From IMG/VR virus record IMGVR_UViG_2585427728_000006, positions 1 to 12,549 of that record: a DNA stretch of 12,549 nucleotides, one strand, 5' to 3'. The position numbers were made by a program, and so were the translations under genes. Of the stretch, positions 1,935-12,549 are shown piece by piece. Origin of the DNA: a virus. Its lineage: Duplodnaviria; Heunggongvirae; Uroviricota; Caudoviricetes. The notes below the pieces were generated by a model. The model saw only the letters and a program-made list of their open reading frames with translations. It ran no database searches and was not told where the DNA came from. Numbering within the stretch: position 1 is the first letter of the stretch; every line of letters begins with the position of its first letter.

Positions 1935-2189
1935 TTACTCATCACCTTCTGTTTCGTACTCCACATCAGAAAGCCTGACCTCAAGCTCTAAGGACGTCGT
2001 GAAGCCGCTGTTATTCAGAAAATGTGTCACTTTAGTGATTGTCCAGTCCTGCTCGTCTATGACGCGCTTAAAGCCTGACACTTTAACCGGTGTTTCCGTG
2101 TAAATATCTGCCCGACCAGTAGCCAGGCTGATGGAGAACTCCGCTACACCCCGTTGCAGCTTATCCCACTTCGCCTGAGCGGCACGCAT
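1935..2189 (-). pseudogene. C-terminal fragment of P2 gpD-like tail protein (yegZ-like remnant)
   Basis: 84-aa ORF ending ...TTSLELEVRLSDVEYETEGDE resembles the C-terminus of P2 gpD (about 387 aa in P2). Same frame stays open upstream to about 2312 with no plausible start, so the N-terminal roughly 70 percent of D is missing. Confidence 0.75.
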
Positions 2190-3135
2190 GGCCTGTGCTT
2201 TCGTGGCATATACCGTGGTCAGGGCAAAAACGTTATCAGCCTCACCGGCCAGATGGTATGAGCCACCGGTCAGCTTTACCGGTCTGGCAAAAAGCCTGCG
2301 TGCTGCCGTGCATCACAGCTCACCGATTTACGTCAAACGTAATATTCTGGCCTCGACATTTATCCCGCATCCGTGGCTTTCCCAGCAGGATTTCAGCCGC
2401 TTTGCGCTGGATTTTCTGGTGTTCGGTAATGCGTTTCTGGAAAAGCGTTACAGCACCACCGGTAAGGTCATCAGACTGGAACCCTCACCGGCAAAATATC
2501 CCCGCCGTGGCGTGGAGGAGAATGTTTACTGGTGGGTGCCGTCCTTCAACGAGCCGACACCTTTCGCGCCCGGCTCCGTGTTTCATCTGCTGGAGCCGGA
2601 TATTAATCAGGAGCTGTACGGCATGCCGGAATATCTCAGCGCCCTTAACTCTGCCTGGCTGAATGAGTCAGCCACGCTGTTCCGCCGCAAGTATTACGAA
2701 AACGGCGCACATGCCGGATACATCATGTACGTCACTGATGCCGTGCAGGATCGCAACGATATCGAAATGCTTCGCGAAAACATGGTCAAGTCGAAAGGCC
2801 GCAACAACTTTAAAAATCTGTTTCTCTATGCCCCGCAGGGAAAAGCCGACGGCATTAAAATTATCCCGCTCAGTGAAGTGGCAACGAAGGACGATTTTTT
2901 TAATATCAAAAAAGCCAGCGCCGCTGACCTGCTGGACGCGCACCGCATCCCCTTTCAGTTGATGGGCGGCAAGCCGGAGAACGTCGGGTCGCTGGGTGAT
3001 ATTGAGAAAGTGGCAAAGGTCTTTGTCCGCAATGAGCTTATCCCGTTACAGGACAGGATCCGCGAGATAAACGGCTGGCTCGGTCAGGAGGTCATCCGCT
3101 TTAAAAACTACTCACTGGACACTGACAACGGCTGA
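2188..3135 (+). pseudogene. N-terminally truncated P2-like portal protein gpQ
   Basis: ORF product resembles P2-family portal protein and ends next to cos, as Q does in P2. Frame opens only at 2179 and the first ~40 codons overlap the D fragment on the opposite strand, so the genuine Q part probably begins near 2314 and lacks its N-terminus (P2 Q is about 344 aa). No P gene or late promoter upstream. Confidence 0.75.
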
Positions 3136-3140
3136 ACATC

Positions 3141-3162
3141 GCCGCCTGCGGGCGGCTTTTTT
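3141..3162 (+). terminator. Rho-independent terminator after Q remnant
   Basis: GC hairpin GCCGCC-TGCG-GGCGGC (3141-3156) followed by TTTTTT (3157-3162), 5 nt after the Q stop codon. Confidence 0.6.
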
Positions 3163-3304
3163 ACACCCAGTCATCACGCCCTCACACGCTCACCACCGCA
3201 CAAAACAGCCCGCAGACACAGCAACGCCCCGGCGCAAAATCTAAACGCCGCCACGACGCGCTCAGACGCTGAAAAAATAAAATCAGCACCCCCGCCAGCG
3301 CGCA

Positions 3305-3323
3305 GTGCTTTCCCCGCCTCGCC
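3305..3323 (-). other. P2-type cos site (19-nt cohesive-end sequence)
   Basis: GTGCTTTCCCCGCCTCGCC is the reverse complement of GGCGAGGCGGGGAAAGCAC, the recalled P2 cohesive end; adjacent sequence toward Q also resembles the P2 left end. Confidence 0.75.
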
Positions 3324-3653
3324 CGCCCGCTTCATGGGGCGGTTTTGATGCAATACATGAGCATCGTAATGCCATATCGTGACAGGATTATAGAACATGA
3401 AGGTATACTAACTTACACATGCAAAAAAACGCACACTCAGGCATTCTCTTTGGAATACAATATGGTAAAAATATGATCATTTGAAGCTGCATATCCGTGC
3501 AGATTGAAATCAATGATGCTGCCCCTTCGTTAAGACAGCCAGGCCGCAATCTCTTGAGCTCAAGTGGACATCTAAGACAGAAAAACAATTTAAAGGCAAA
3601 GTTTTCGTAATGGTATCTTTGTCACAGCACACGCTAAAAAGGAACTAAACCTC

Positions 3654-4718
3654 ATGAGCACTCAGCAAGTCCTCAACATCCCTACAGCCGTATCGCAAGC
3701 GACCATCGAAAAATGGTTGAAAGGACTGGAACAGACAACGGAATTAGCCTTTTTTCGCCGTGTTGGCGGGCGGCATGGCTTCAATGTTACGAGCCGCTGG
3801 GCAAGTACATTGGATAACTTGAATAAAACTCTGAATGACCCATCGAAGCAAGGTACGCCTGCAAACTTTTCAAATCTCCGTTTGATTACGTTAAAAATAA
3901 TCACTAGCGTAAACCATTATTATTCAATTGATGGTATTAAATCAGGAACCATTAATTTAATACCAAATATAATCAACTACCCTCACCTCGATAAAACATT
4001 TAGCTCAGTATTTCCAATAAAACTTGATGATAATACAGGACTTCCTTCGACTCCTGGGCATTTCATTACTTCCATCGAAAAAATGGGGGATGGTATTGCT
4101 GTAATATATTCCTATATTATTTTAAGAAAAATCCAAGGAAGGAGTAAGCTACGTAGCAATCAATATCCAGAGCAGTACTTCAACACTGTTTTCATCCCTA
4201 ATGATTTAAGCCGTATAGAATATCGGGTTGATAAATCACTAGGTAAAAGAGCGTCTGAAAAAGCGATGGCAGATTTGCGCGCAAAATTTAATGAATTACT
4301 CGTGGAACTTAATATTAAGTTAGCTGTTGAAACTATAAATTTCTACAAAGCAATTTCCAATATTTACCTTGACAAACAATATGGAAGACTTGTTCAGGTT
4401 AATTTCCTTGATCCAAATGGAGATGAGGATGCTGTTCTTCGTTGCAGAACAGACCCCAATTATGATGCCCGTTATCGCGAGGTTGTATCTAAAACTCAGA
4501 ACGGAACACCTCGCTCATTGACCCTTGAAGTTTCTGGCGTTGCAGTGCGATTAGATAGTAAAGTTGCAAACGAAACAATTTCAAATGAAATTGGTTTTGA
4601 ACCCAGCAAAACTGATTGGTCTACAAACAAATTTTGTGGGGATTTTTATTTTACACAAACAGCAGATCATCAGGTGCATTATGGGGTGATAAATGATTTA
4701 CTCACAAGAGCGAAATAA
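3654..4718 (+). CDS. Hypothetical protein, cargo gene 1 of cos-proximal three-gene operon (354 aa, no recognisable family)
   Basis: ATG at 3654 with AAGGA about 10 nt upstream; long ORF in a strongly AT-rich block; first gene of a co-directional tightly packed trio. No Walker A, RT, TIR or Old-like motifs seen. Confidence 0.75.
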   Translation: MSTQQVLNIPTAVSQATIEKWLKGLEQTTELAFFRRVGGRHGFNVTSRWASTLDNLNKTLNDPSKQGTPANFSNLRLITLKIITSVNHYYSIDGIKSGTINLIPNIINYPHLDKTFSSVFPIKLDDNTGLPSTPGHFITSIEKMGDGIAVIYSYIILRKIQGRSKLRSNQYPEQYFNTVFIPNDLSRIEYRVDKSLGKRASEKAMADLRAKFNELLVELNIKLAVETINFYKAISNIYLDKQYGRLVQVNFLDPNGDEDAVLRCRTDPNYDARYREVVSKTQNGTPRSLTLEVSGVAVRLDSKVANETISNEIGFEPSKTDWSTNKFCGDFYFTQTADHQVHYGVINDLLTRAK

Positions 4719-5127
4719 AAAAATGCGCTCATTAGTGTATAAACAAAGAGTACTCCTGGAGAATGCCGGAAGCTCTTCTGTTTTCATAAATAATGATTCT
4801 CACATATATTATACAAATTTACTAGAATATGTAGAGGGTGATCTTGATCGTAATATTTATACAATCCCAGTATTACGAAAAGCCATAAAAACTGACAATT
4901 ATGAACATTTGCTACGAGTTGTTCAATTTTTTAGTAGCAATACCTCTTGTTTATTTAACGTTAAATATTGCTACGAACTAGAAAACATGGAGTTTGAGGA
5001 CATACAAGCTGATGAATATACCAACTATATATTAAACGGAGTTGAACCTGTAACTGCCAATGGTTCTGAAATTGAAGACTTCAATCCAAAATATCTTTCA
5101 TTTTATTGCATAATAAACCTGGATTGA
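4693..5127 (+). CDS. Hypothetical small acidic protein, cargo gene 2 (144 aa; alternative start at 4723 gives 134 aa)
   Basis: ATG at 4693 preceded by GGGGTG; overlaps gene 1 by 26 nt; stop TGA 5125-5127 lies 5 nt before the gene 3 ATG. Asp/Glu-rich, no recognisable motif. Confidence 0.6.
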   Translation: MIYSQERNKKMRSLVYKQRVLLENAGSSSVFINNDSHIYYTNLLEYVEGDLDRNIYTIPVLRKAIKTDNYEHLLRVVQFFSSNTSCLFNVKYCYELENMEFEDIQADEYTNYILNGVEPVTANGSEIEDFNPKYLSFYCIINLD

Positions 5128-5132
5128 CTGTC

Positions 5133-5981
5133 ATGAACAAACAACAAATCACATGTGAGTTAGGCAAAAGGGTTCATTTTGAAGATGAAGCGAGTTTTAT
5201 TGAAACATTATACTCGGATATAGAAGTCATAATAAAACTAATGGAGCAATCTAGTGACAAGTATTATTGTGATGATGAAGATAAACTAAGCCATACAATT
5301 GTAGCCTCTCTTGTACACCTAGGTTACGATGCAACCGAACAAACAAAAAAAAATGGAAGTGTGGACATAACCGTTCGTCCGAAAAATGGAGGATATACAT
5401 GGATTGCTGAAGCAAAAATCGGATACGGGAACCAAAAAATATTCGAGGGGCTACTTCAGTTGCTTACTCGCTATGTTAAAAGAGATAATCATGCAGGCAT
5501 GGTTATCTATTATCAAAAATCAAAGTCATCTTATCATTTCAAACAATGGCTGAAATACATATACAACCATGAGTGGAAGGATTATTGTACAAAGAAAGGG
5601 TCATTAAAAAAAGCGACTCCGCTACTTTCTCATTTAAAAAGTACGGTTTGTCCGAAAGTCAAACAAGGCTGTTGTTATGCTGACATTGATGTCATCCAAC
5701 CTTCGACTGATGGTCTAAAACTTCGCTGCTTCTATATTGACGTGCATCATGACCCAATTGACAGTAGTGGTTTAAAGAATAAGTCAATCGCCTTTGGTCA
5801 AGCCCAAAATAGAATTAGAGATTTATATCACTTATGGAAGACAGGACAGTTCGACGGCAGTATGATAGATGAATTATTTGAAGAAATAAAAATATATCAT
5901 AGCAATGAACTTGACGAAGAATATGAAGATGAAGATGAAGATGAAGATGAAGATGAAGATTCGAATATAAACTCAAAATGA
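5133..5981 (+). CDS. Hypothetical protein with PD-(D/E)xK nuclease-like signature and poly-(Glu-Asp) C-terminal tail, cargo gene 3
   Basis: ATG at 5133 (the ORF-track start at 5106 is TTG). Contains GSVDITV...(14 aa)...WIAEAKIG, i.e. D78 and E93-x-K95, a spacing typical of PD-(D/E)xK cores; C-terminus EYEDEDEDEDEDEDSNINSK. Confidence 0.7.
   Translation: MNKQQITCELGKRVHFEDEASFIETLYSDIEVIIKLMEQSSDKYYCDDEDKLSHTIVASLVHLGYDATEQTKKNGSVDITVRPKNGGYTWIAEAKIGYGNQKIFEGLLQLLTRYVKRDNHAGMVIYYQKSKSSYHFKQWLKYIYNHEWKDYCTKKGSLKKATPLLSHLKSTVCPKVKQGCCYADIDVIQPSTDGLKLRCFYIDVHHDPIDSSGLKNKSIAFGQAQNRIRDLYHLWKTGQFDGSMIDELFEEIKIYHSNELDEEYEDEDEDEDEDEDSNINSK
5925..5960 (+). repeat. Perfect hexanucleotide tandem repeat (GAAGAT)x6 inside gene 3
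   Basis: Six exact tandem copies of GAAGAT, in frame, encoding (Glu-Asp)6. Confidence 0.95.
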
Positions 5982-5994
5982 ACACCAAGAATCA

Positions 5995-6028
5995 CCCCAT
6001 TAAGTTTAGACATCCTAACTTGATGGGG
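5995..6028. terminator. Putative hairpin between convergent cargo gene 3 and A
   Basis: CCCCATTAAG (5995-6004) pairs with CTTGATGGGG (6019-6028) with one G-U position and a 14-nt loop; no strong T-tract on either strand, so function is uncertain. Confidence 0.3.
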
Positions 6029-6116
6029 AATTGACTTTTAAGTCTGTAACCCTAGCCATCAAAAATAGATTCATTTTAAATAAAAATATATCCGTTACGC
6101 CCCAAAAAAAATTGAA

Positions 6117-8387
6117 TTAATTAGGAAAAACACTCCCAGTTGGAATTTTTTTAAATTTATATTTCCTCCCATCGAAACATACTGTCGCACCGCGTGCTAA
6201 TACCTGTGGTTCCCATTGATTCGGCGTAATACCCTCCTGAGCCAACTCGAATCTTATACGTGGCGTCTGTTCCCGTTCAGCTTTTGTCATTCGTCCTGAG
6301 GGCGCTATCTGATAAGGTTTTAATGGCTCACAGCTCTTTTGCTGGCGATTTGGTCGTGGCGCATCGTGTTTTAGTGCGCATCTGAGCCCCGTCACGACTT
6401 CAGGGTCATCCCAGCCGATAACCCCGCGCTCAATCAGATTCAACACCGCTGCTGCTTGCTCAGAAGGTATGGATGTCATAGCAGGATCGCCACCGCTAGT
6501 TAGCTTTCCACAGTTATTGACAGGACTCCGAGGCGCGGCGATGCCGCTTTTTAAAGTCAAAGGCTCAACGACCGGCACTTTCGGAACAATGCGCCAGTCC
6601 GTCGTTCTGGTGATATGAATATGACGCGCGCCGAGATGCGGCGCGTAAATGCCGACCACTCTCTCGACTTCTTCCTCGTACTCGTTAACTTCATCCGACG
6701 GACTACGGGCAACCCTGACAGTCTGACAATCGCGCGGAACATTTGCCCCACCCTGCGCGCTGATATACAACGCAAAATCACCACTGTCTGCGGCAGCGCG
6801 TGCAGCCTCGACGCGTTCGTCAAACTCATCAGCAATGCTGACGCCGCGAGGCAATTTGCGTAGTTCACGGTAAGCCCCCATTGTCGGCAGGCCAACCGTT
6901 TTAAATTGCGGAATGCGCCACGTTGACGCCCATGCGGTAACAGCCGCGGCAGTGTCTTTCAGCGGCCTGCCGGTATCGTTATCGAGCTGACCATCCAGTG
7001 CATAGCCATCGATGTTTTTTGAGATGTATTTCGCGATATATCCCGCAGCACCGCCCCGGTTAAGGTGTTTTGCCTGAAAACGGTTTCGCGCGGCTCCTCT
7101 TTCGTCACCATCCTCTTTGAGCGCATAGCGACGCATGATTTCGATAATCTGGTTACGCTGGCGTGGATTACAAAAAAGCATCATATGCCAGTGCGGCGTT
7201 CCGTCGTGGTGTGGCTCGACGACTCGCAAACCGTAGACCTGTAAATCATTATCCTTGAATGCCGTGCGCATCAGGCTCCAGATGCGGCAGAGATAACGCT
7301 GCGCATCCTTTGGATTAAATGCCTCATCATTCCAGCCGTGATTTAGCTGGACGGTTTTACTTTCGCCTTTTCCGACCTGACGTGTCGGGTGATACTTTGA
7401 CGGCGCGGTCAGCGTGATAAACATCCCCACATCACCCTCTGCGGCGGCGTAACGCTCAATACCGGCGATGGTGTTCATCAGCTCCATCCGGCGAATTTCT
7501 GGATTAGAAATACTGCCCATCACCTTACTGATAAGGTCGATGCGCTCGCCGGTTTCCCTGTTTTCAAGGTCACACGATTTAAGAAATTCCAGATTTGCCT
7601 GGCGGCGCGCACACACATCACGAATGGCATGTTTACTGGCATAAGGAGAACGGTCTTTATTCACCTCCCCGACAGCAATCAGTAACGCCTCATGCCAGCG
7701 CATACGCTGGCCTTTAAGCTGACTAATCCACCACTCATCGTTAAACAGACGGGCAATGGCAGAATATGCCTGCCTCGTGGTCATCTGTCCTTTACGGTAT
7801 TTTTTCCAGTAGAGAGGGGAAATATTGAAAGCACGTGCAGCGCCAGCAACATGACCATACAGATGCGCCTGCGCCTCATCTGTAAACAGCGATTCTTTCT
7901 CGCCATGTGCATCAACCCATGCATCGCAGAGTTCCTCATACATCATGAAAAGCTGCGATGAGATACGGGCGGCAAACTTTTTCAGCTCCTTGTCATTCAT
8001 CCCCGGCAGACGCGCATAATGGTCACGCTCTGCCAGAAACAGCAACGACGCGTCGGTGTTCATTTCATGGCGCTGATTCACGCGCTCAATACGCGGCCAT
8101 AAACGGCGCTGAAAAGTGGATGTGAGGAAATAAAATCCGTGCACCGGGCTTTTATTGCGCCGGATGTAGTCATAGCGTGAAGTAAACAGCGAGCGCAAAA
8201 AGTAAGGCAGGCGATTAATCGTGGATAAAACACCTTGCACCTGACGCATCTCGTCACGTGTAAGGGGTCTTTCGCGCCCGACGGCCTCGCGTGGCGCGTT
8301 CCATGCATAAGCACCGGTAAACGTCTCACCGGTGCCTGCGGCAAATGCTGACGGAGGGACAAAACGCCCGGAGGCTTTAACGGCCAT
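6117..8387 (-). CDS. A: P2-type replication initiation protein gpA (rolling-circle HUH endonuclease)
   Basis: 756 aa from ATG at 8387 (MAVKASGRFVPP...), closely matching recalled P2 gpA, including the HWHMMLF (HUH) and YIAKYISK motifs. The ORF-track start at 8429 is TTG. Confidence 0.9.
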   Translation of the reverse strand: MAVKASGRFVPPSAFAAGTGETFTGAYAWNAPREAVGRERPLTRDEMRQVQGVLSTINRLPYFLRSLFTSRYDYIRRNKSPVHGFYFLTSTFQRRLWPRIERVNQRHEMNTDASLLFLAERDHYARLPGMNDKELKKFAARISSQLFMMYEELCDAWVDAHGEKESLFTDEAQAHLYGHVAGAARAFNISPLYWKKYRKGQMTTRQAYSAIARLFNDEWWISQLKGQRMRWHEALLIAVGEVNKDRSPYASKHAIRDVCARRQANLEFLKSCDLENRETGERIDLISKVMGSISNPEIRRMELMNTIAGIERYAAAEGDVGMFITLTAPSKYHPTRQVGKGESKTVQLNHGWNDEAFNPKDAQRYLCRIWSLMRTAFKDNDLQVYGLRVVEPHHDGTPHWHMMLFCNPRQRNQIIEIMRRYALKEDGDERGAARNRFQAKHLNRGGAAGYIAKYISKNIDGYALDGQLDNDTGRPLKDTAAAVTAWASTWRIPQFKTVGLPTMGAYRELRKLPRGVSIADEFDERVEAARAAADSGDFALYISAQGGANVPRDCQTVRVARSPSDEVNEYEEEVERVVGIYAPHLGARHIHITRTTDWRIVPKVPVVEPLTLKSGIAAPRSPVNNCGKLTSGGDPAMTSIPSEQAAAVLNLIERGVIGWDDPEVVTGLRCALKHDAPRPNRQQKSCEPLKPYQIAPSGRMTKAEREQTPRIRFELAQEGITPNQWEPQVLARGATVCFDGRKYKFKKIPTGSVFPN

Positions 8388-8652
8388 ATGAGCCAAAAGC
8401 CTCTGAACAACGCTTGCTGAGTTGCTCAACCTGCGCGTTTAAATCAGCAAAAGACTTTGCGCTTCCGGTCAGAATATCGTGATGCATCAGGCCGGAAACA
8501 AGCTGGCTTAATTTCGGATAATAACCAACCACCGCCAGCCATTCCTGACCGGCGTTTTTACCGCTTTCCGCTCTCTTTTTCTCGTGGAGAATAAACTGAA
8601 AGCTGTCACTGGTAACGACATAACGTTCGCCAATTTCAATACGAATACTCAT
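8377..8652 (-). CDS. P2 early-operon hypothetical protein (position of P2 orf83)
   Basis: 91-aa ORF; its ATG (8650-8652) overlaps the stop of the upstream gene, and its own stop overlaps the start of A; position between B and A as in P2. Confidence 0.7.
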   Translation of the reverse strand: MSIRIEIGERYVVTSDSFQFILHEKKRAESGKNAGQEWLAVVGYYPKLSQLVSGLMHHDILTGSAKSFADLNAQVEQLSKRCSEAFGSYGR

Positions 8653-8873
8653 GCCGTTCTCCGGTAATGTTTGTTTTTTGCTTCAAAGACTGACTGGCAG
8701 GAAACACAACGCGTGGCTGACGGATAAGCCGCACGACGGGCAGCAGGTATTGGCGCGTCACACTCTTCGCAAACCAGCGCAGAAGCACCGCAATGTTTTA
8801 CCCTTGCCGCGTTAATCTGACGCTCCAGTAATTCAGCCTGTTGTTCCTGAATAAAATCTACGTTGTCCGGCAT
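8649..8873 (-). CDS. TraR/DksA-family C4 zinc-finger protein (position of P2 orf82)
   Basis: 74-aa ORF with C-x2-C-x17-C-x2-C (CEECDAPIPAARRAAYPSATRCVSCQ); start overlaps the upstream stop (TAATG). Confidence 0.75.
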   Translation of the reverse strand: MPDNVDFIQEQQAELLERQINAARVKHCGASALVCEECDAPIPAARRAAYPSATRCVSCQSVFEAKNKHYRRTA

Positions 8874-9175
8874 TACCAGCTCCTTTTGTCGTTAAGTTTT
8901 TTAAATTCATCAGCGCAATAGCTGGCAATTTCTGTCGTTAATTTCGTCAGTTCATCCACGGAGGAGATTTGCTTGTGAAATACAGCGCGTTTAACAAGTA
9001 AATTGACCACATCAGACAGGAGATTTAATTCGTTCTGATAAATCGCGATAACAGACTCAGTTATTTCGCGTTTTTCTTTATCAAGACCAAGTTGAATAAG
9101 AGATAAATCGCCATTTTTCATAACGGTGATTTTTAAGGCGTTATTCAGTAATACAACTGAACGAGAACAGGACAT
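8873..9175 (-). CDS. P2 early-operon hypothetical protein (position of P2 orf81)
   Basis: 100 aa from ATG at 9175, which overlaps the stop of the upstream gene (TGATG); the 9178 start in the ORF track is TTG. Confidence 0.65.
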   Translation of the reverse strand: MSCSRSVVLLNNALKITVMKNGDLSLIQLGLDKEKREITESVIAIYQNELNLLSDVVNLLVKRAVFHKQISSVDELTKLTTEIASYCADEFKKLNDKRSW

Positions 9176-9399
9176 CAAAGCACCTCCCCGCGAGACAATC
9201 CGATATTGTGAAATTTTTCCGACTCCTGACTGAGCAGCTCGACTATCTCCACGCGGGATAACTCCGCCTTTGTGATGTGGCGAATCATGGCGTCAAGATG
9301 AGAAGAAAAGCGCGTCGCTGCGTCGGCCTGTGCTTCGGTTCTGGCCTGTTGCAGCAGTAATGCGTATTTACCGCACTGATTTTCAGAAACTGTATGCAT
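9175..9399 (-). CDS. P2 early-operon hypothetical protein (position of P2 orf80)
   Basis: 74 aa from ATG at 9399 (MHTVSEN...) with GGAGAAAG upstream; the longer ORF-track version starts at a TTG. Confidence 0.65.
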
Positions 9400-9462
9400 G
9401 ACTTTCTCCAGGCAAAAAGAAGCCCCGCACAATTAAGTGCGTTAAAAACTCTGGTTAATTAC

Positions 9463-9963
9463 TTAATGCAGATATTGCTCTGGTTTTACCGACGTCAGAA
9501 TTGTCGGTGCATACTCAAACAGGCTGAATAATTCACGTAATGCACGGAATAAAGCATCACGCCAGTAACATGATTCTTCATTAATTCGCCAGTATGGCTG
9601 GTTGAATTCTTTTTCAGTCAATCCGGCATGCATAAATAAAGTACGACGCTGACTGACTGTTAAAAAACTAATATATGCATACTCACTTGCGCCAACCTGA
9701 CGGCGTTTGGAGAATGCCCCACGCAATTCATCAATTGCACAAACCAGCCGTTCACGTTCGACGTCGTTCATTTCTTCAAAACGCATCGTTGCGTGACGCT
9801 GTTTTAACTGCGCATGGAAGCAAACCGTTAGCCGTTCGCGTTCCATCATCTGATTATAATAATCGCATGTCTCCTGCCAGCGAGGGACGGCCAGATGCTT
9901 ACCAATTATCCGGCGCATAGCTGCTGGCTGTTTTTCAACGAGATTGAGCGTCATCACTGTCAT
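9463..9963 (-). CDS. B: P2-type replication protein gpB (helicase-loader-like)
   Basis: 166 aa, MTVMTLNLVEKQPAAMRRIIGKHLAVPRWQ..., matching recalled P2 gpB over its whole length. Confidence 0.9.
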   Translation of the reverse strand: MTVMTLNLVEKQPAAMRRIIGKHLAVPRWQETCDYYNQMMERERLTVCFHAQLKQRHATMRFEEMNDVERERLVCAIDELRGAFSKRRQVGASEYAYISFLTVSQRRTLFMHAGLTEKEFNQPYWRINEESCYWRDALFRALRELFSLFEYAPTILTSVKPEQYLH

Positions 9964-10130
9964 TTCCAGACCCTCCGGCTTTTCAGAAAGGTCAGAGTCT
10001 TTTTTAACGGACTCTGTTTTTTGGTGCGGATAATGATTCCCTTACGCCCCTTACCGTGGGTGATGGTGAAGTCAATCGCCCTGGGGCTTTCGTTACGCAA
10101 TAACTGAGCAATACAACGAGGCTCATTCAT
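9960..10130 (-). CDS. Small hypothetical protein (position of P2 orf78)
   Basis: 56 aa from ATG at 10130 with a perfect AAGGAG upstream; the ORF-track start at 10154 is GTG. Confidence 0.6.
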   Translation of the reverse strand: MNEPRCIAQLLRNESPRAIDFTITHGKGRKGIIIRTKKQSPLKKTLTFLKSRRVWK

Positions 10131-10140
10131 ACGGTTCTCC

Positions 10141-10416
10141 TTAACGTGGTTCACCGAGACCTAACCACATCAACCAGCCGTCACGAATCTCTTTAGGACG
10201 GCTTTCATAAGCCAGTTTTAGTCCGTTATTCCATGCCGGAAGGTATACCCAATATTCACCAGCACGCCCCGATACTGACTGAGGGTCAGTAATCTCAATA
10301 ACTGGTAATTTCCCTTTCTCAATCATGCCCCTTACAGCTCTTGGAGTTTTACCAATGAGTTTTGCAAACTCCTGATAAGGCACGGCATCAGTCACGCTTA
10401 CAAGCTGTCTATTCAT
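10141..10416 (-). CDS. cox: P2-type Cox protein (excisionase / repressor of Pc)
   Basis: 91 aa, ...PYQEFAKLIGK...GRAGEYWVYLPAWNNGLKLAYESRPKEIRDGWLMWLGLGEPR, matching recalled P2 Cox; first gene of the leftward early operon. Confidence 0.9.
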   Translation of the reverse strand: MNRQLVSVTDAVPYQEFAKLIGKTPRAVRGMIEKGKLPVIEITDPQSVSGRAGEYWVYLPAWNNGLKLAYESRPKEIRDGWLMWLGLGEPR

Positions 10417-10537
10417 CTGCTACGATTCTCCCTTAGTGCTTCTAATGGCTCCTAATGGCTAATTATTGCCTAAAAGGATAACTCCAGAAGCACAACATTT
10501 CACACTATCAGCAAGAAATTACGCAATCGGAGTAATT
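10417..10537. promoter_or_regulatory. Divergent cox / C control region (Pe/Pc promoters and operator) with tandem 10-bp direct repeats
   Basis: Intergenic region between divergent cox and C; TCTAATGGCT / CCTAATGGCT tandem repeats at 10441-10460 are candidate C-repressor half-sites. Exact promoter elements not assigned. Confidence 0.6.
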
Positions 10538-10837
10538 ATGTCAATAGACGTTTCGGAGAAGTTGAAGCTAATCCGTGAATCTGAAAGGTTAAACCGTAAA
10601 GAATTCAGTGAATTAACTGGTGTAGCCTACAGCTCACTTTCGAGCTATGAGAGCCGGTCAAAAAACGCTGGAGTTGAAGCCATAATGAAGGTCTTACAAC
10701 ATCCCAGATTTACTAAATATACTTTGTGGTTCATGACTGATCAGGTAGCTCCAGAAGCCGGGCAAATTGCGCCCGCTCTCGCACACTTTGGGCAAAACGA
10801 AACAACGTCGCCCCACTCCGGTCAAAAGACTGGTTAA
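10538..10837 (+). CDS. C: P2-type immunity repressor C
   Basis: 99 aa from ATG at 10538; C-terminal half ...FTKYTLWFMTDQVAPEAGQIAPALAHFGQNETTSPHSGQKTG matches recalled P2 C; N-terminal DNA-binding part looks divergent from P2. Confidence 0.85.
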   Translation: MSIDVSEKLKLIRESERLNRKEFSELTGVAYSSLSSYESRSKNAGVEAIMKVLQHPRFTKYTLWFMTDQVAPEAGQIAPALAHFGQNETTSPHSGQKTG

Positions 10838-10952
10838 CAATTTATCGTGAATATATTCATCACAAGTGCCTACTATTGGTGGCTAAATTTCAGCCACCAC
10901 GAAAAAAGCGATTAGTAGTAGCAAAAAAAAGTACCACTCGGAGGGTTTTCTG

Positions 10953-11966
10953 ATGGCAATCAAAAAACTCGATGATGGTCGATATGAAGTGGACATCCGC
11001 CCTACTGGACGTAACGGAAAACGCATCCGTAGGAAGTTTGATAAGAAAAGCGAAGCTGTCGCTTTCGAAAAATACACGTTGTACAACCACCACAATAAAG
11101 AATGGCTATCAAAACCAACAGACAAACGACGTCTGTCGGAACTGACACAGATCTGGTGGGATTTAAAGGGTAAACACGAAGAGCATGGGAAATCTAATCT
11201 TGGAAAAATTGAAATCTTCACAAAAATAACGAATGACCCATGCGCATTTCAAATCACGAAATCCCTTATCAGCCAGTACTGCGCCACCCGAAGAAGTCAG
11301 GGTATTAAACCTTCGAGTATCAATCGTGATTTAACATGTATTAGCGGCATGTTTACAGCCCTGATTGAAGCGGAGTTATTCTTTGGTGAGCACCCTATCA
11401 GAGGGACAAAGAGGCTTAAGGAGGAAAAACCAGAAACAGGCTATCTCACACAGGAAGAAATTGCCTTACTGCTTGCAGCACTTGACGGCGACAACAAAAA
11501 GATTGCGATTCTTTGCCTGAGTACAGGAGCACGTTGGGGAGAAGCAGCTCGTTTAAAAGCAGAAAATATCATCCATAACCGCGTCACGTTTGTTAAAACG
11601 AAAACAAACAAACCACGCACCGTCCCGATCTCAGAGGCTGTTGCCAAAATGATCGCGGATAACAAACGAGGTTTTTTATTCCCTGATGCTGATTACCCTC
11701 GCTTCAGACGAACAATGAAAGCAATAAAACCGGATTTGCCAACGGGGCAAGCCACACATGCACTAAGGCACAGCTTTGCCACTCATTTCATGATTAATGG
11801 AGGAAGTATTATCACGCTACAACGGATACTAGGTCACACGCGGATTGAGCAAACTATGGTTTACGCTCATTTTGCGCCAGAGTACCTTCAGGACGCCATT
11901 TCTCTTAATCCGCTAAGAGGTGGTACTGAAGCCGAGAGTGTCCACACAGTGTCCACAGTAGAGTAA
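10953..11966 (+). CDS. int: P2-type integrase (tyrosine recombinase)
   Basis: 337 aa, GGAGGG SD upstream; C-terminal catalytic region HALRHSFATHF...LGHTRIEQTMVYAHF with the catalytic Tyr; downstream of C as in P2 and adjacent to the att core. Confidence 0.9.
   Translation: MAIKKLDDGRYEVDIRPTGRNGKRIRRKFDKKSEAVAFEKYTLYNHHNKEWLSKPTDKRRLSELTQIWWDLKGKHEEHGKSNLGKIEIFTKITNDPCAFQITKSLISQYCATRRSQGIKPSSINRDLTCISGMFTALIEAELFFGEHPIRGTKRLKEEKPETGYLTQEEIALLLAALDGDNKKIAILCLSTGARWGEAARLKAENIIHNRVTFVKTKTNKPRTVPISEAVAKMIADNKRGFLFPDADYPRFRRTMKAIKPDLPTGQATHALRHSFATHFMINGGSIITLQRILGHTRIEQTMVYAHFAPEYLQDAISLNPLRGGTEAESVHTVSTVE
11938..11957. repeat. Tandem direct repeats GTGTCCACA x2: putative Int arm-type binding sites
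   Basis: Two exact 9-bp copies 11 bp apart at the 3' end of int, about 90 bp from the att core; a related GTCCACACA occurs in the other arm at 1574-1583. Confidence 0.5.
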
Positions 11967-12045
11967 CGTTTAAGGGCTTTCAGTGGTAATTTATGCCGCT
12001 CAAACCCGCATTGTACCGTTGAAAGCCCCTACTGGTGACACCCTA

Positions 12046-12072
12046 AATCTCCCTTACACGGGCTTATTTTTT
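12046..12072. repeat. P2-type att core, right copy (prophage/chromosome junction next to int)
   Basis: 27-bp exact direct repeat of 1507-1533, followed by one extra T. Confidence 0.85.
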
Positions 12073-12136
12073 TATGCATAAGCCCTATCTCTGGTAACCG
12101 TCTTCCATTGACCACATCGATAGAATCCTCCTTCAT

Positions 12137-12169
12137 AGCACGATGCCTTTCACTTATCGGCATCGTGCT
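12137..12169. repeat. Perfect 11-bp inverted repeat (stem-loop) between att core and yegR
   Basis: AGCACGATGCC (12137-12147) and GGCATCGTGCT (12159-12169) with an 11-nt loop; no adjacent T-tract on either strand. Confidence 0.5.
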
Positions 12170-12231
12170 CCCACAGGTTCCGGCTACGCACAGCCAGAAC
12201 GCGCATATTTGACGCTTACCAAAAAATATTC

Positions 12232-12549
12232 TCACTCTCCACATTTGAATGTCAGACGAGCGACACCATGTAATCCTACACCTTCTGTCTTCAGCTCAAC
12301 TATTTGCATTTTTTTGCCCTGAGTAACACAGAAATGAGTTGCATCATTTTTTACTATATTTTCTGCACCAGATATTCTACCCCTGGCTAAAGAAGCTTCG
12401 GCTTCGGTGTAGTATTGGTTATCGAGTTTACGCTGAATATTACTTTTATATGCAAGACCAAATTTACCGATACTTGTCTCATCATTATGCACAGCACAAC
12501 CAGACATAATAAAAATACTAATTAATGATATAGCAGCTATCTTTTTCAT
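12232..12549 (-). CDS. yegR: Putative lipoprotein YegR
   Basis: Complete 105-aa ORF (start codon is the last 3 nt of the window) with signal peptide and lipobox (IFIMSGC); matches recalled E. coli YegR. Confidence 0.85.
   Translation of the reverse strand: MKKIAAISLISIFIMSGCAVHNDETSIGKFGLAYKSNIQRKLDNQYYTEAEASLARGRISGAENIVKNDATHFCVTQGKKMQIVELKTEGVGLHGVARLTFKCGE

Follow-up and report, generated by a model that had tools for sequence, protein, structure and literature searches.

A mobile three-gene cargo at the Q-A hotspot of a P2-like prophage: a first gene with predicted resemblance to RdgC and a putative role in anti-phage defence

Introduction

What does a 354-aa protein of no recognisable family do as the first and largest product of an AT-rich cargo block in a P2-like prophage? 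The question is raised by the 12,549-nucleotide stretch of DNA analysed here in full (the window). An earlier note on the letters of this stretch had guessed, from gene order and size, that the protein might be the sensor or regulatory component of its block. The block lies in the Q-cos-A interval, where P2 carries old and tin, and which is a hotspot of anti-phage systems (Rousset et al. 2022). P2 hotspots also bear restriction enzymes, as well as non-defence cargo in the form of partition systems and the CDT toxin (Rousset et al. 2022), and such non-defence content counts against reading the block as defence.

Results

The cargo lies in a deletion remnant between yegQ and yegR

Between yegQ and yegR, the window contains the remnant of a P2-like prophage, in which ogr, a C-terminal gpD fragment, a truncated Q, the cos 19-mer, the AT-rich cargo genes g1, g2 and g3 (the trio), gene A, cox, C and int follow one another in that order. 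The features on which the analysis draws are listed below.

2188..3135, + strand: 5'-truncated P2-type portal gene (Q), the left hotspot border; the retained part is 97% identical to the A23 portal protein
3305..3323, - strand: P2 cos cohesive-end 19-mer, GGCGAGGCGGGGAAAGCAC; exact match, with 0/200 shuffles matching
3450..3477, + strand: weak sigma-70-like promoter candidate 5' of g1, TTGGAA-16-TATGAT; 9/12 positions in a consensus scan
3654..4718, + strand: g1 (354 aa, basic, pI 9.1); four-helix N-terminal region (residues 15-85), then two alpha/beta modules, in a predicted RdgC-like fold
4693..5127, + strand: g2 (144 aa, acidic, pI 4.7), no detectable family; a homologue is directly 3' of g1 in all loci
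5133..5981, + strand: g3 (282 aa), a probable PD-(D/E)xK nuclease with a C-terminal acidic tail, from its motif and weak profile matches
5919..5960, + strand: (GAAGAT)7 hexanucleotide repeat encoding the (ED)n tail of g3; TRF score 77
6117..8429, - strand: P2 replication endonuclease gene A, the right hotspot border; 99% identical to A23 gpA, annotated 'replication endonuclease'

Collinearity of the window with the intact A23 prophage was limited to two stretches, 2246-10394 and 10681-12549. The C-terminal gpD fragment abuts the 5'-truncated portal gene (1935-3135), therefore all the morphogenesis genes are missing and the prophage is a deletion remnant. E. coli A23 carries the same cargo, with 99.7% DNA identity; there the P2-like prophage is intact and the cargo is flanked by the portal and replication endonuclease genes, and the RefSeq protein for g1 in A23 (WP_004016844) is 100% identical to that of the window. 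In E. coli ZH177 the prophage has truncated terminase, gpV, gpA and repressor genes. None of the three, A23, ZH177 or the window, has lost an intact g1, g2 or g3.

The yegQ/yegR site was found in three prophage states: intact (A23), decayed (ZH177) and with a D'-'Q deletion (the window). The unmatched stretch of the window at 10395-10680 takes in the intergenic region of cox and C together with the 5' end of the gene for the C repressor, and so points to another immunity allele.

[quoted passage not shown] Identity of the trio with Tin was rejected by BLASTP, which detected no similarity, and no ATPase, Toprim or OLD-family match was found for the trio in Pfam or PADLOC.

g1 is a real gene of a small family

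The g1 open reading frame is intact from the ATG at 3654 to the stop at 4718 on the + strand (354 aa) and is preceded by an AAGGA ribosome-binding site ~9 nt 5' of the ATG. Its family comprises 24 full-length clusters of 45-100% identity with 71 invariant columns, and it is because of this conservation that g1 is regarded as a real gene and not a chance reading frame.

The note had also described a GC-balanced N-terminus followed by AT-rich coding sequence, and the measured composition agrees: the GC content of g1 is 52.7% in the first 150 nt and 31-35% in the later 150-nt blocks, except for 46.7% at 4404-4553, and GC3 drops from 0.53 over the initial 60 codons to 0.27 over the rest. The neighbouring P2 gene A has a GC content of 52%. 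The homologues of g1, divergent ones included, likewise have a richer 5' end (0.43-0.47 vs 0.30-0.40), therefore the gradient is a property of g1 itself and a recombination junction at this point was rejected. The 5' composition reflects the make-up of the gene, whose N-terminal region is rich in Gly, Ala and Arg. An 80-aa antisense reading frame (3662-3904, minus strand) lies inside the GC-richer part and is probably a by-product of local composition.

Comparison of g1 with Pfam, NCBIfam and PADLOC gave no significant match, and a g1 profile matched none of the PDB sequences even at E<=10. The sole family match was to phrog_12777 (function unknown; E 4.5e-8). At the level of sequence the description as a protein of no recognisable family therefore holds, and g1 received no assignment to a housekeeping or phage structural family. 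The motif RVGGRH at residues 35-40, which had been considered too weak for a HEPN domain, proved to be poorly conserved: H40 is replaced by Y in 12/24 family members and R35 by I or L in 3/24. There was no HEPN match for g1 in Pfam or PADLOC, the region lies within a predominantly alpha/beta protein, and the HEPN reading was discarded.

In relatives with as little as 16% identity, residues L75, P121, P182, E189 and R273 survive and R187 and R191 are nearly invariant; the surviving residues centre on a hairpin, FNTVFIPxxxxR(I/V)E(Y/F)R. The protein is basic (pI 9.06), with 16 alignment columns that are always K or R.

The trio is rare, linked and mobile

Homologues of g2 and g3 directly follow g1, in the same order, in 35/35 loci with downstream sequence, and the stop and start codons of the trio usually overlap or abut across loci. 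Neither of the two findings that the earlier note had named as refuting its reading, a housekeeping or structural family or a lack of co-occurrence, was thus obtained. In the most distant copy, from Ramlibacter, the g2 slot is filled by a gene of equal size that is unrecognisable by profile. The divergence of g1, g2 and g3 is tightly correlated over 19 non-redundant loci (Pearson r 0.95-0.96). The correlated divergence and the complete linkage together indicate that the trio is inherited as a unit.

The g1 family is very small. Of 5.8 billion clusters at 90% identity it accounts for 24, all organism-named members being from Enterobacterales, and an exhaustive profile search of 1.84 billion representatives at 50% identity recovered 27. 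g1 was found in 2/185,579 species-representative genomes and the cargo in 2/5,426 complete E. coli genomes; protein-level matches to g1 were found in 1/50,697 phage records and 1/72,556 plasmids, and megablast against phages gave no match.

The carriers are diverse and mutually unrelated. Among P2-like prophages, where several genera are represented, the trio invariably occupies the Q-A hotspot, and in lambdoid prophages it is found at the ends, directly beside int. The Vibrio phage 10N.247.311.62_PE001 (Vinavirales, 14.8 kb) carries the whole trio beside its integrase, where it makes up ~15% of the genome (L036, 1351-3626). Three further settings involve integrase islands or a plasmid: in a Citrobacter integrase island the trio adjoins an EcoRII restriction-modification system, in an integrase-bearing island of Vibrio parahaemolyticus (L017, 1985-4250) DprA-like and phosphoribosyltransferase genes lie immediately upstream of it, and in a Pantoea megaplasmid it lies at a prophage end near RelE. 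In Cronobacter and Ramlibacter it is found at chromosomal sites. The pairing of DprA with a phosphoribosyltransferase is of a type validated as a P2-hotspot defence system (Rousset et al. 2022). The record of the Vibrio phage also holds a gene annotated as resembling the P2 replication gene A.

In defence hotspots and islands, and next to known defence genes, the trio occupies the positions by which anti-phage genes are generically recognised through enrichment. Its mobility, its hotspot placement and its retention after prophage decay form the pattern expected of defence cargo that benefits the host.

g3 is a probable nuclease and g2 a small acidic protein

The start of g3 is placed at TTG 5106 by a mechanical reading of the frame and at ATG 5133 by RefSeq and Rousset. 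In eight diverse homologues of g3, E69, D78 (in VDITV), and E93 and K95 (in E-A-K) are invariant, which is the layout of a PD-(D/E)xK site, and copies from Ramlibacter, the Vibrio phage and Pantoea keep the D...EAK core. The PDDEXK_9 profile matched weakly, in 3/8 g3 members with a best E of 0.013; g3 also matched phrog_9664 (E 2.6e-74), and its profile against PDB sequences gave only noise. A single-sequence AF2 model of g3 had a pLDDT of 38.5. From the motif and sub-threshold matches, g3 is a probable PD-(D/E)xK nuclease.

The PADLOC candidate PDC-S54 is partly similar, positions 219-369 of its 410-position profile matching the N-terminal nuclease region of g3 (residues 13-156; E 1.6e-7). 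It differs from the trio in being one model only, whose C-terminal half holds the domain and which has no counterpart of g1 or g2, and a literature search on PDC-S54 found nothing. The length of g3 is 280 aa in A23, 282 in the window and 286 in ZH177, differences that are consistent with copy-number change in the (GAAGAT)n repeat; the acidic tail is missing or different in many homologues.

g2 had no family match, and its profile against PDB gave only noise. Read from ATG 4693, it overlaps g1 by 26 nt; an alternative start at the invariant M11 (ATG 4723), 4 nt past the g1 stop, is used by some gene callers in other loci.

g1 is predicted to resemble RdgC in fold

A confident AlphaFold2 model of g1 built from the 24-sequence alignment (pLDDT 87.4, pTM 0.87) has four helices in its N-terminal region (residues 15-85) and, after them, two alpha/beta modules. 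The top Foldseek match among 350,542 chains was RdgC, a weak match (E 0.066, probability 0.82, TM 0.36-0.41, 9% identity) that lies below the usual same-fold TM threshold and is not significant by itself. Against viral structure models the best matches were phage proteins of ~280-320 aa, which included the 'Exonuclease' of Escherichia phage PTXU04 (probability 1.00) and a 'Recombination-associated protein'; such names are often borne by phage RdgC homologues. The models thus suggest that g1 resembles RdgC in its three-dimensional scaffold of paired alpha/beta modules, to a moderate degree.

Membership of g1 by sequence in RdgC or RexA was rejected. PF04381 (RdgC) matched none of 26 diverse g1 family members at E<=10, and hhalign of an extended g1 alignment returned probabilities of 0.2% against E. 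coli RdgC and 0.1% against lambda RexA. The 27 proteins recovered by the exhaustive g1 profile search of 1.84 billion representatives included none from the RdgC family (>5,700 clusters), and g1 matched no PADLOC family.

E. coli RdgC (PDB 2OWL; PF04381) is a recombination-associated, ring-shaped DNA-binding protein, a homodimer with a basic central pore, and the likeness of g1 to it is one of predicted fold. The observations on g1 that bear on such a ring are its basic pI and its always-K/R columns. The two differ in that g1 has an additional N-terminal four-helix region, and in genetic setting: the housekeeping gene for RdgC stands alone, and g1 without exception heads a mobile trio. In the structure paper on lambda RexA, this protein was placed in the RdgC/Iml3/Chl4 DNA-binding scaffold, and non-specific DNA binding is described there for both RdgC and RexA. 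As a prophage-encoded accessory gene that acts with a separate partner protein, RexA (of RexAB) is the closest functional analogue of g1. A membrane partner like RexB was not found in the trio: no 19-residue Kyte-Doolittle window reached >=1.6 in g1-g3 or in four distant trios, compared with 51 in the RexB control.

Lambdoid phages carry RdgC homologues in their early-left regions, near int or cI, for which superinfection exclusion like that of RexA has been suggested. These homologues and the trio are both prophage-borne, the trio directly adjoining int in lambdoid prophages. However, the lambdoid homologues are true members of the RdgC family by sequence, unlike g1, and no partners like g2 or g3 have been described for them.

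The trio is catalogued

All three trio proteins are listed in Table S5B of Rousset et al. 2022 as system #145, 'DUF5939 | DpnII-MboI', with 14 occurrences and no note, and WP_004016844 is also listed in Table S5A. The label of #145, including DpnII-MboI, is an HHpred label for the whole system; hmmscan gave no match to DUF5939 in any of the three proteins. A sequence search matched only Table S5, and the trio is absent from Table S2, which holds the cloned and tested systems. Another system of that study, 'hp + hp + hp' (pFR109, from E. coli E1114), protects against P1 (Rousset et al. 2022) and, like the trio, consists of three genes without clear domains at the P2 Q-A hotspot. The two are not the same, since the best BLASTP E over 9 pairwise combinations was 0.31 and the sizes and order of the genes differ.

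In a literature search, no paper was found to mention the trio accessions, an RdgC-like defence protein of this kind, or an RdgC-like fold for the largest protein of the trio. The type of locus is known and the trio is catalogued; it is without a name or a model in PADLOC v2.0.0, the sole defence library scanned.

Discussion

The data place g1, g2 and g3 together as a conserved mobile operon that would be accessory cargo of the cos-proximal Q-A hotspot of P2-like prophages, and the trio is likely to be an anti-phage defence module, here termed putative. We propose that g1 is the DNA-binding subunit of a three-gene superinfection-exclusion operon, a model that, taken whole, we give an even chance of being correct. 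g1 would be a soluble basic protein in which a family-specific four-helix N-terminal region precedes a C-terminal part of ~270 residues with a DNA-binding scaffold of the RdgC/RexA/Iml3-Chl4 type, and it may form dimers or rings. It would bind DNA, or the replication or recombination intermediates of a phage, and would direct or license the g3 PD-(D/E)xK nuclease as effector, the small acidic g2 being a possible adaptor or inhibitor. Against this model stand the lack of a sequence link to RdgC or RexA, a fold match that is moderate, and the presence of the same alpha/beta modules in proteins of mainly protein-protein contact (CENP-L/Iml3, Mediator Med18/20). The guess in the earlier note that g1 has a sensor or regulatory part is now firmer than gene order and size had made it, because the predicted fold is the non-specific DNA-binding scaffold of RdgC, as in RexA; from the model, such a role is plausible.

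A more specific form of the proposal, which we put forward tentatively, is a Rex-like immunity system in which an RdgC-fold clamp formed by g1 detects phage DNA intermediates or ends and frees the g3 nuclease from inhibition by g2. If correct, this would be the first RdgC/RexA scaffold wired to a nuclease effector and not to a membrane channel, and a Rex-like trio would be common to tailed (P2-like, lambdoid) and tailless (Vinavirales) temperate phages.

Other functions were weighed against defence. The trio may be a toxin-antitoxin or addiction module, with g3 as nuclease toxin, g2 as antitoxin and g1 as DNA-binding autoregulator, and with stability of the element as its main effect. The small size and acidity of g2 and its translational coupling to or overlap with its neighbours suit an antitoxin, as the g3 motif suits a toxin; the trio is kept in decaying prophages, and RelE-type toxin-antitoxin genes are near it in two loci. 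However, autoregulators of such modules are usually small HTH or RHH proteins and not 354-aa proteins with an RdgC-like fold, no toxin-antitoxin family was matched in Pfam, NCBIfam or PADLOC, and in every locus the large gene comes first in an unchanging order of three. We consider this reading, which overlaps with abortive-infection defence, to be unlikely.

Slightly less probable again is a restriction-like system that has no methylase and is Type IV-like or modification-dependent, in which g1 would read modified or foreign DNA and g3 would be the endonuclease. The g3 motif fits such a system, one source names a homologue of g3 'Restriction endonuclease', and the Rousset label reads DpnII-MboI; a methyltransferase was not found in the block, and restriction enzymes do occur in P2 hotspots. 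Against it, Pfam and PADLOC gave no match to SRA, YTH, EVE, an Mrr N-terminal domain or a Type IV family, and DNA binding by RdgC and RexA is non-specific.

The trio could instead serve the phage, as a DNA-transaction module in which induction, replication or recombination is aided by a nuclease together with a modulator of RecA or of recombination that resembles RdgC, as is proposed for RexA in its effect on the lysis-lysogeny switch. RecA functions are inhibited by RdgC, and RexA shifts the lambda switch to lytic growth (RexA structure paper), RdgC homologues are present in lambdoid early-left regions, and the best viral structural matches of g1 are phage proteins, two of them with the names 'Exonuclease' and 'Recombination-associated protein'. 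Nevertheless, the trio is also found in islands and at chromosomal sites without phage genes, and it survives in remnants unable to form virions. Being rare and patchy among otherwise near-identical P2 backbones (2/5,426 complete E. coli genomes), it is distributed in the manner of exchangeable accessory cargo, not of a function at the core of the phage, and a phage-beneficial role is doubtful, a shade more so than restriction. Least probable, and improbable by our estimate, is that the RdgC resemblance is incidental, g1 being a non-DNA-binding scaffold or a new enzyme and the match reflecting generic TBP-like alpha/beta modules.

If the trio is a working defence system, as in the model preferred here, it adds a family that is undetected by PADLOC v2.0.0. 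It would also provide phage exclusion with another instance, the second and the structurally closer one, of the RdgC scaffold, and a clean case of defence cargo that moves between unrelated mobile elements, from P2-like, lambdoid and Vinavirales phages to islands. How lambda RexA senses infection is a question of decades' standing. In vitro reconstitution would be much easier for a soluble RdgC-fold protein paired with a nuclease than for RexA and RexB, its partner in the membrane, and the sensing of phage DNA intermediates by this scaffold would therefore be directly testable.

Two extra small genes (102 and 119 aa), neither with a match in Pfam, separate g3 from gene A in the Enterobacter P2-like prophages (L002-L004, 8472-9143), and in this lineage only; they may supplement the trio system or form a small cargo of their own.
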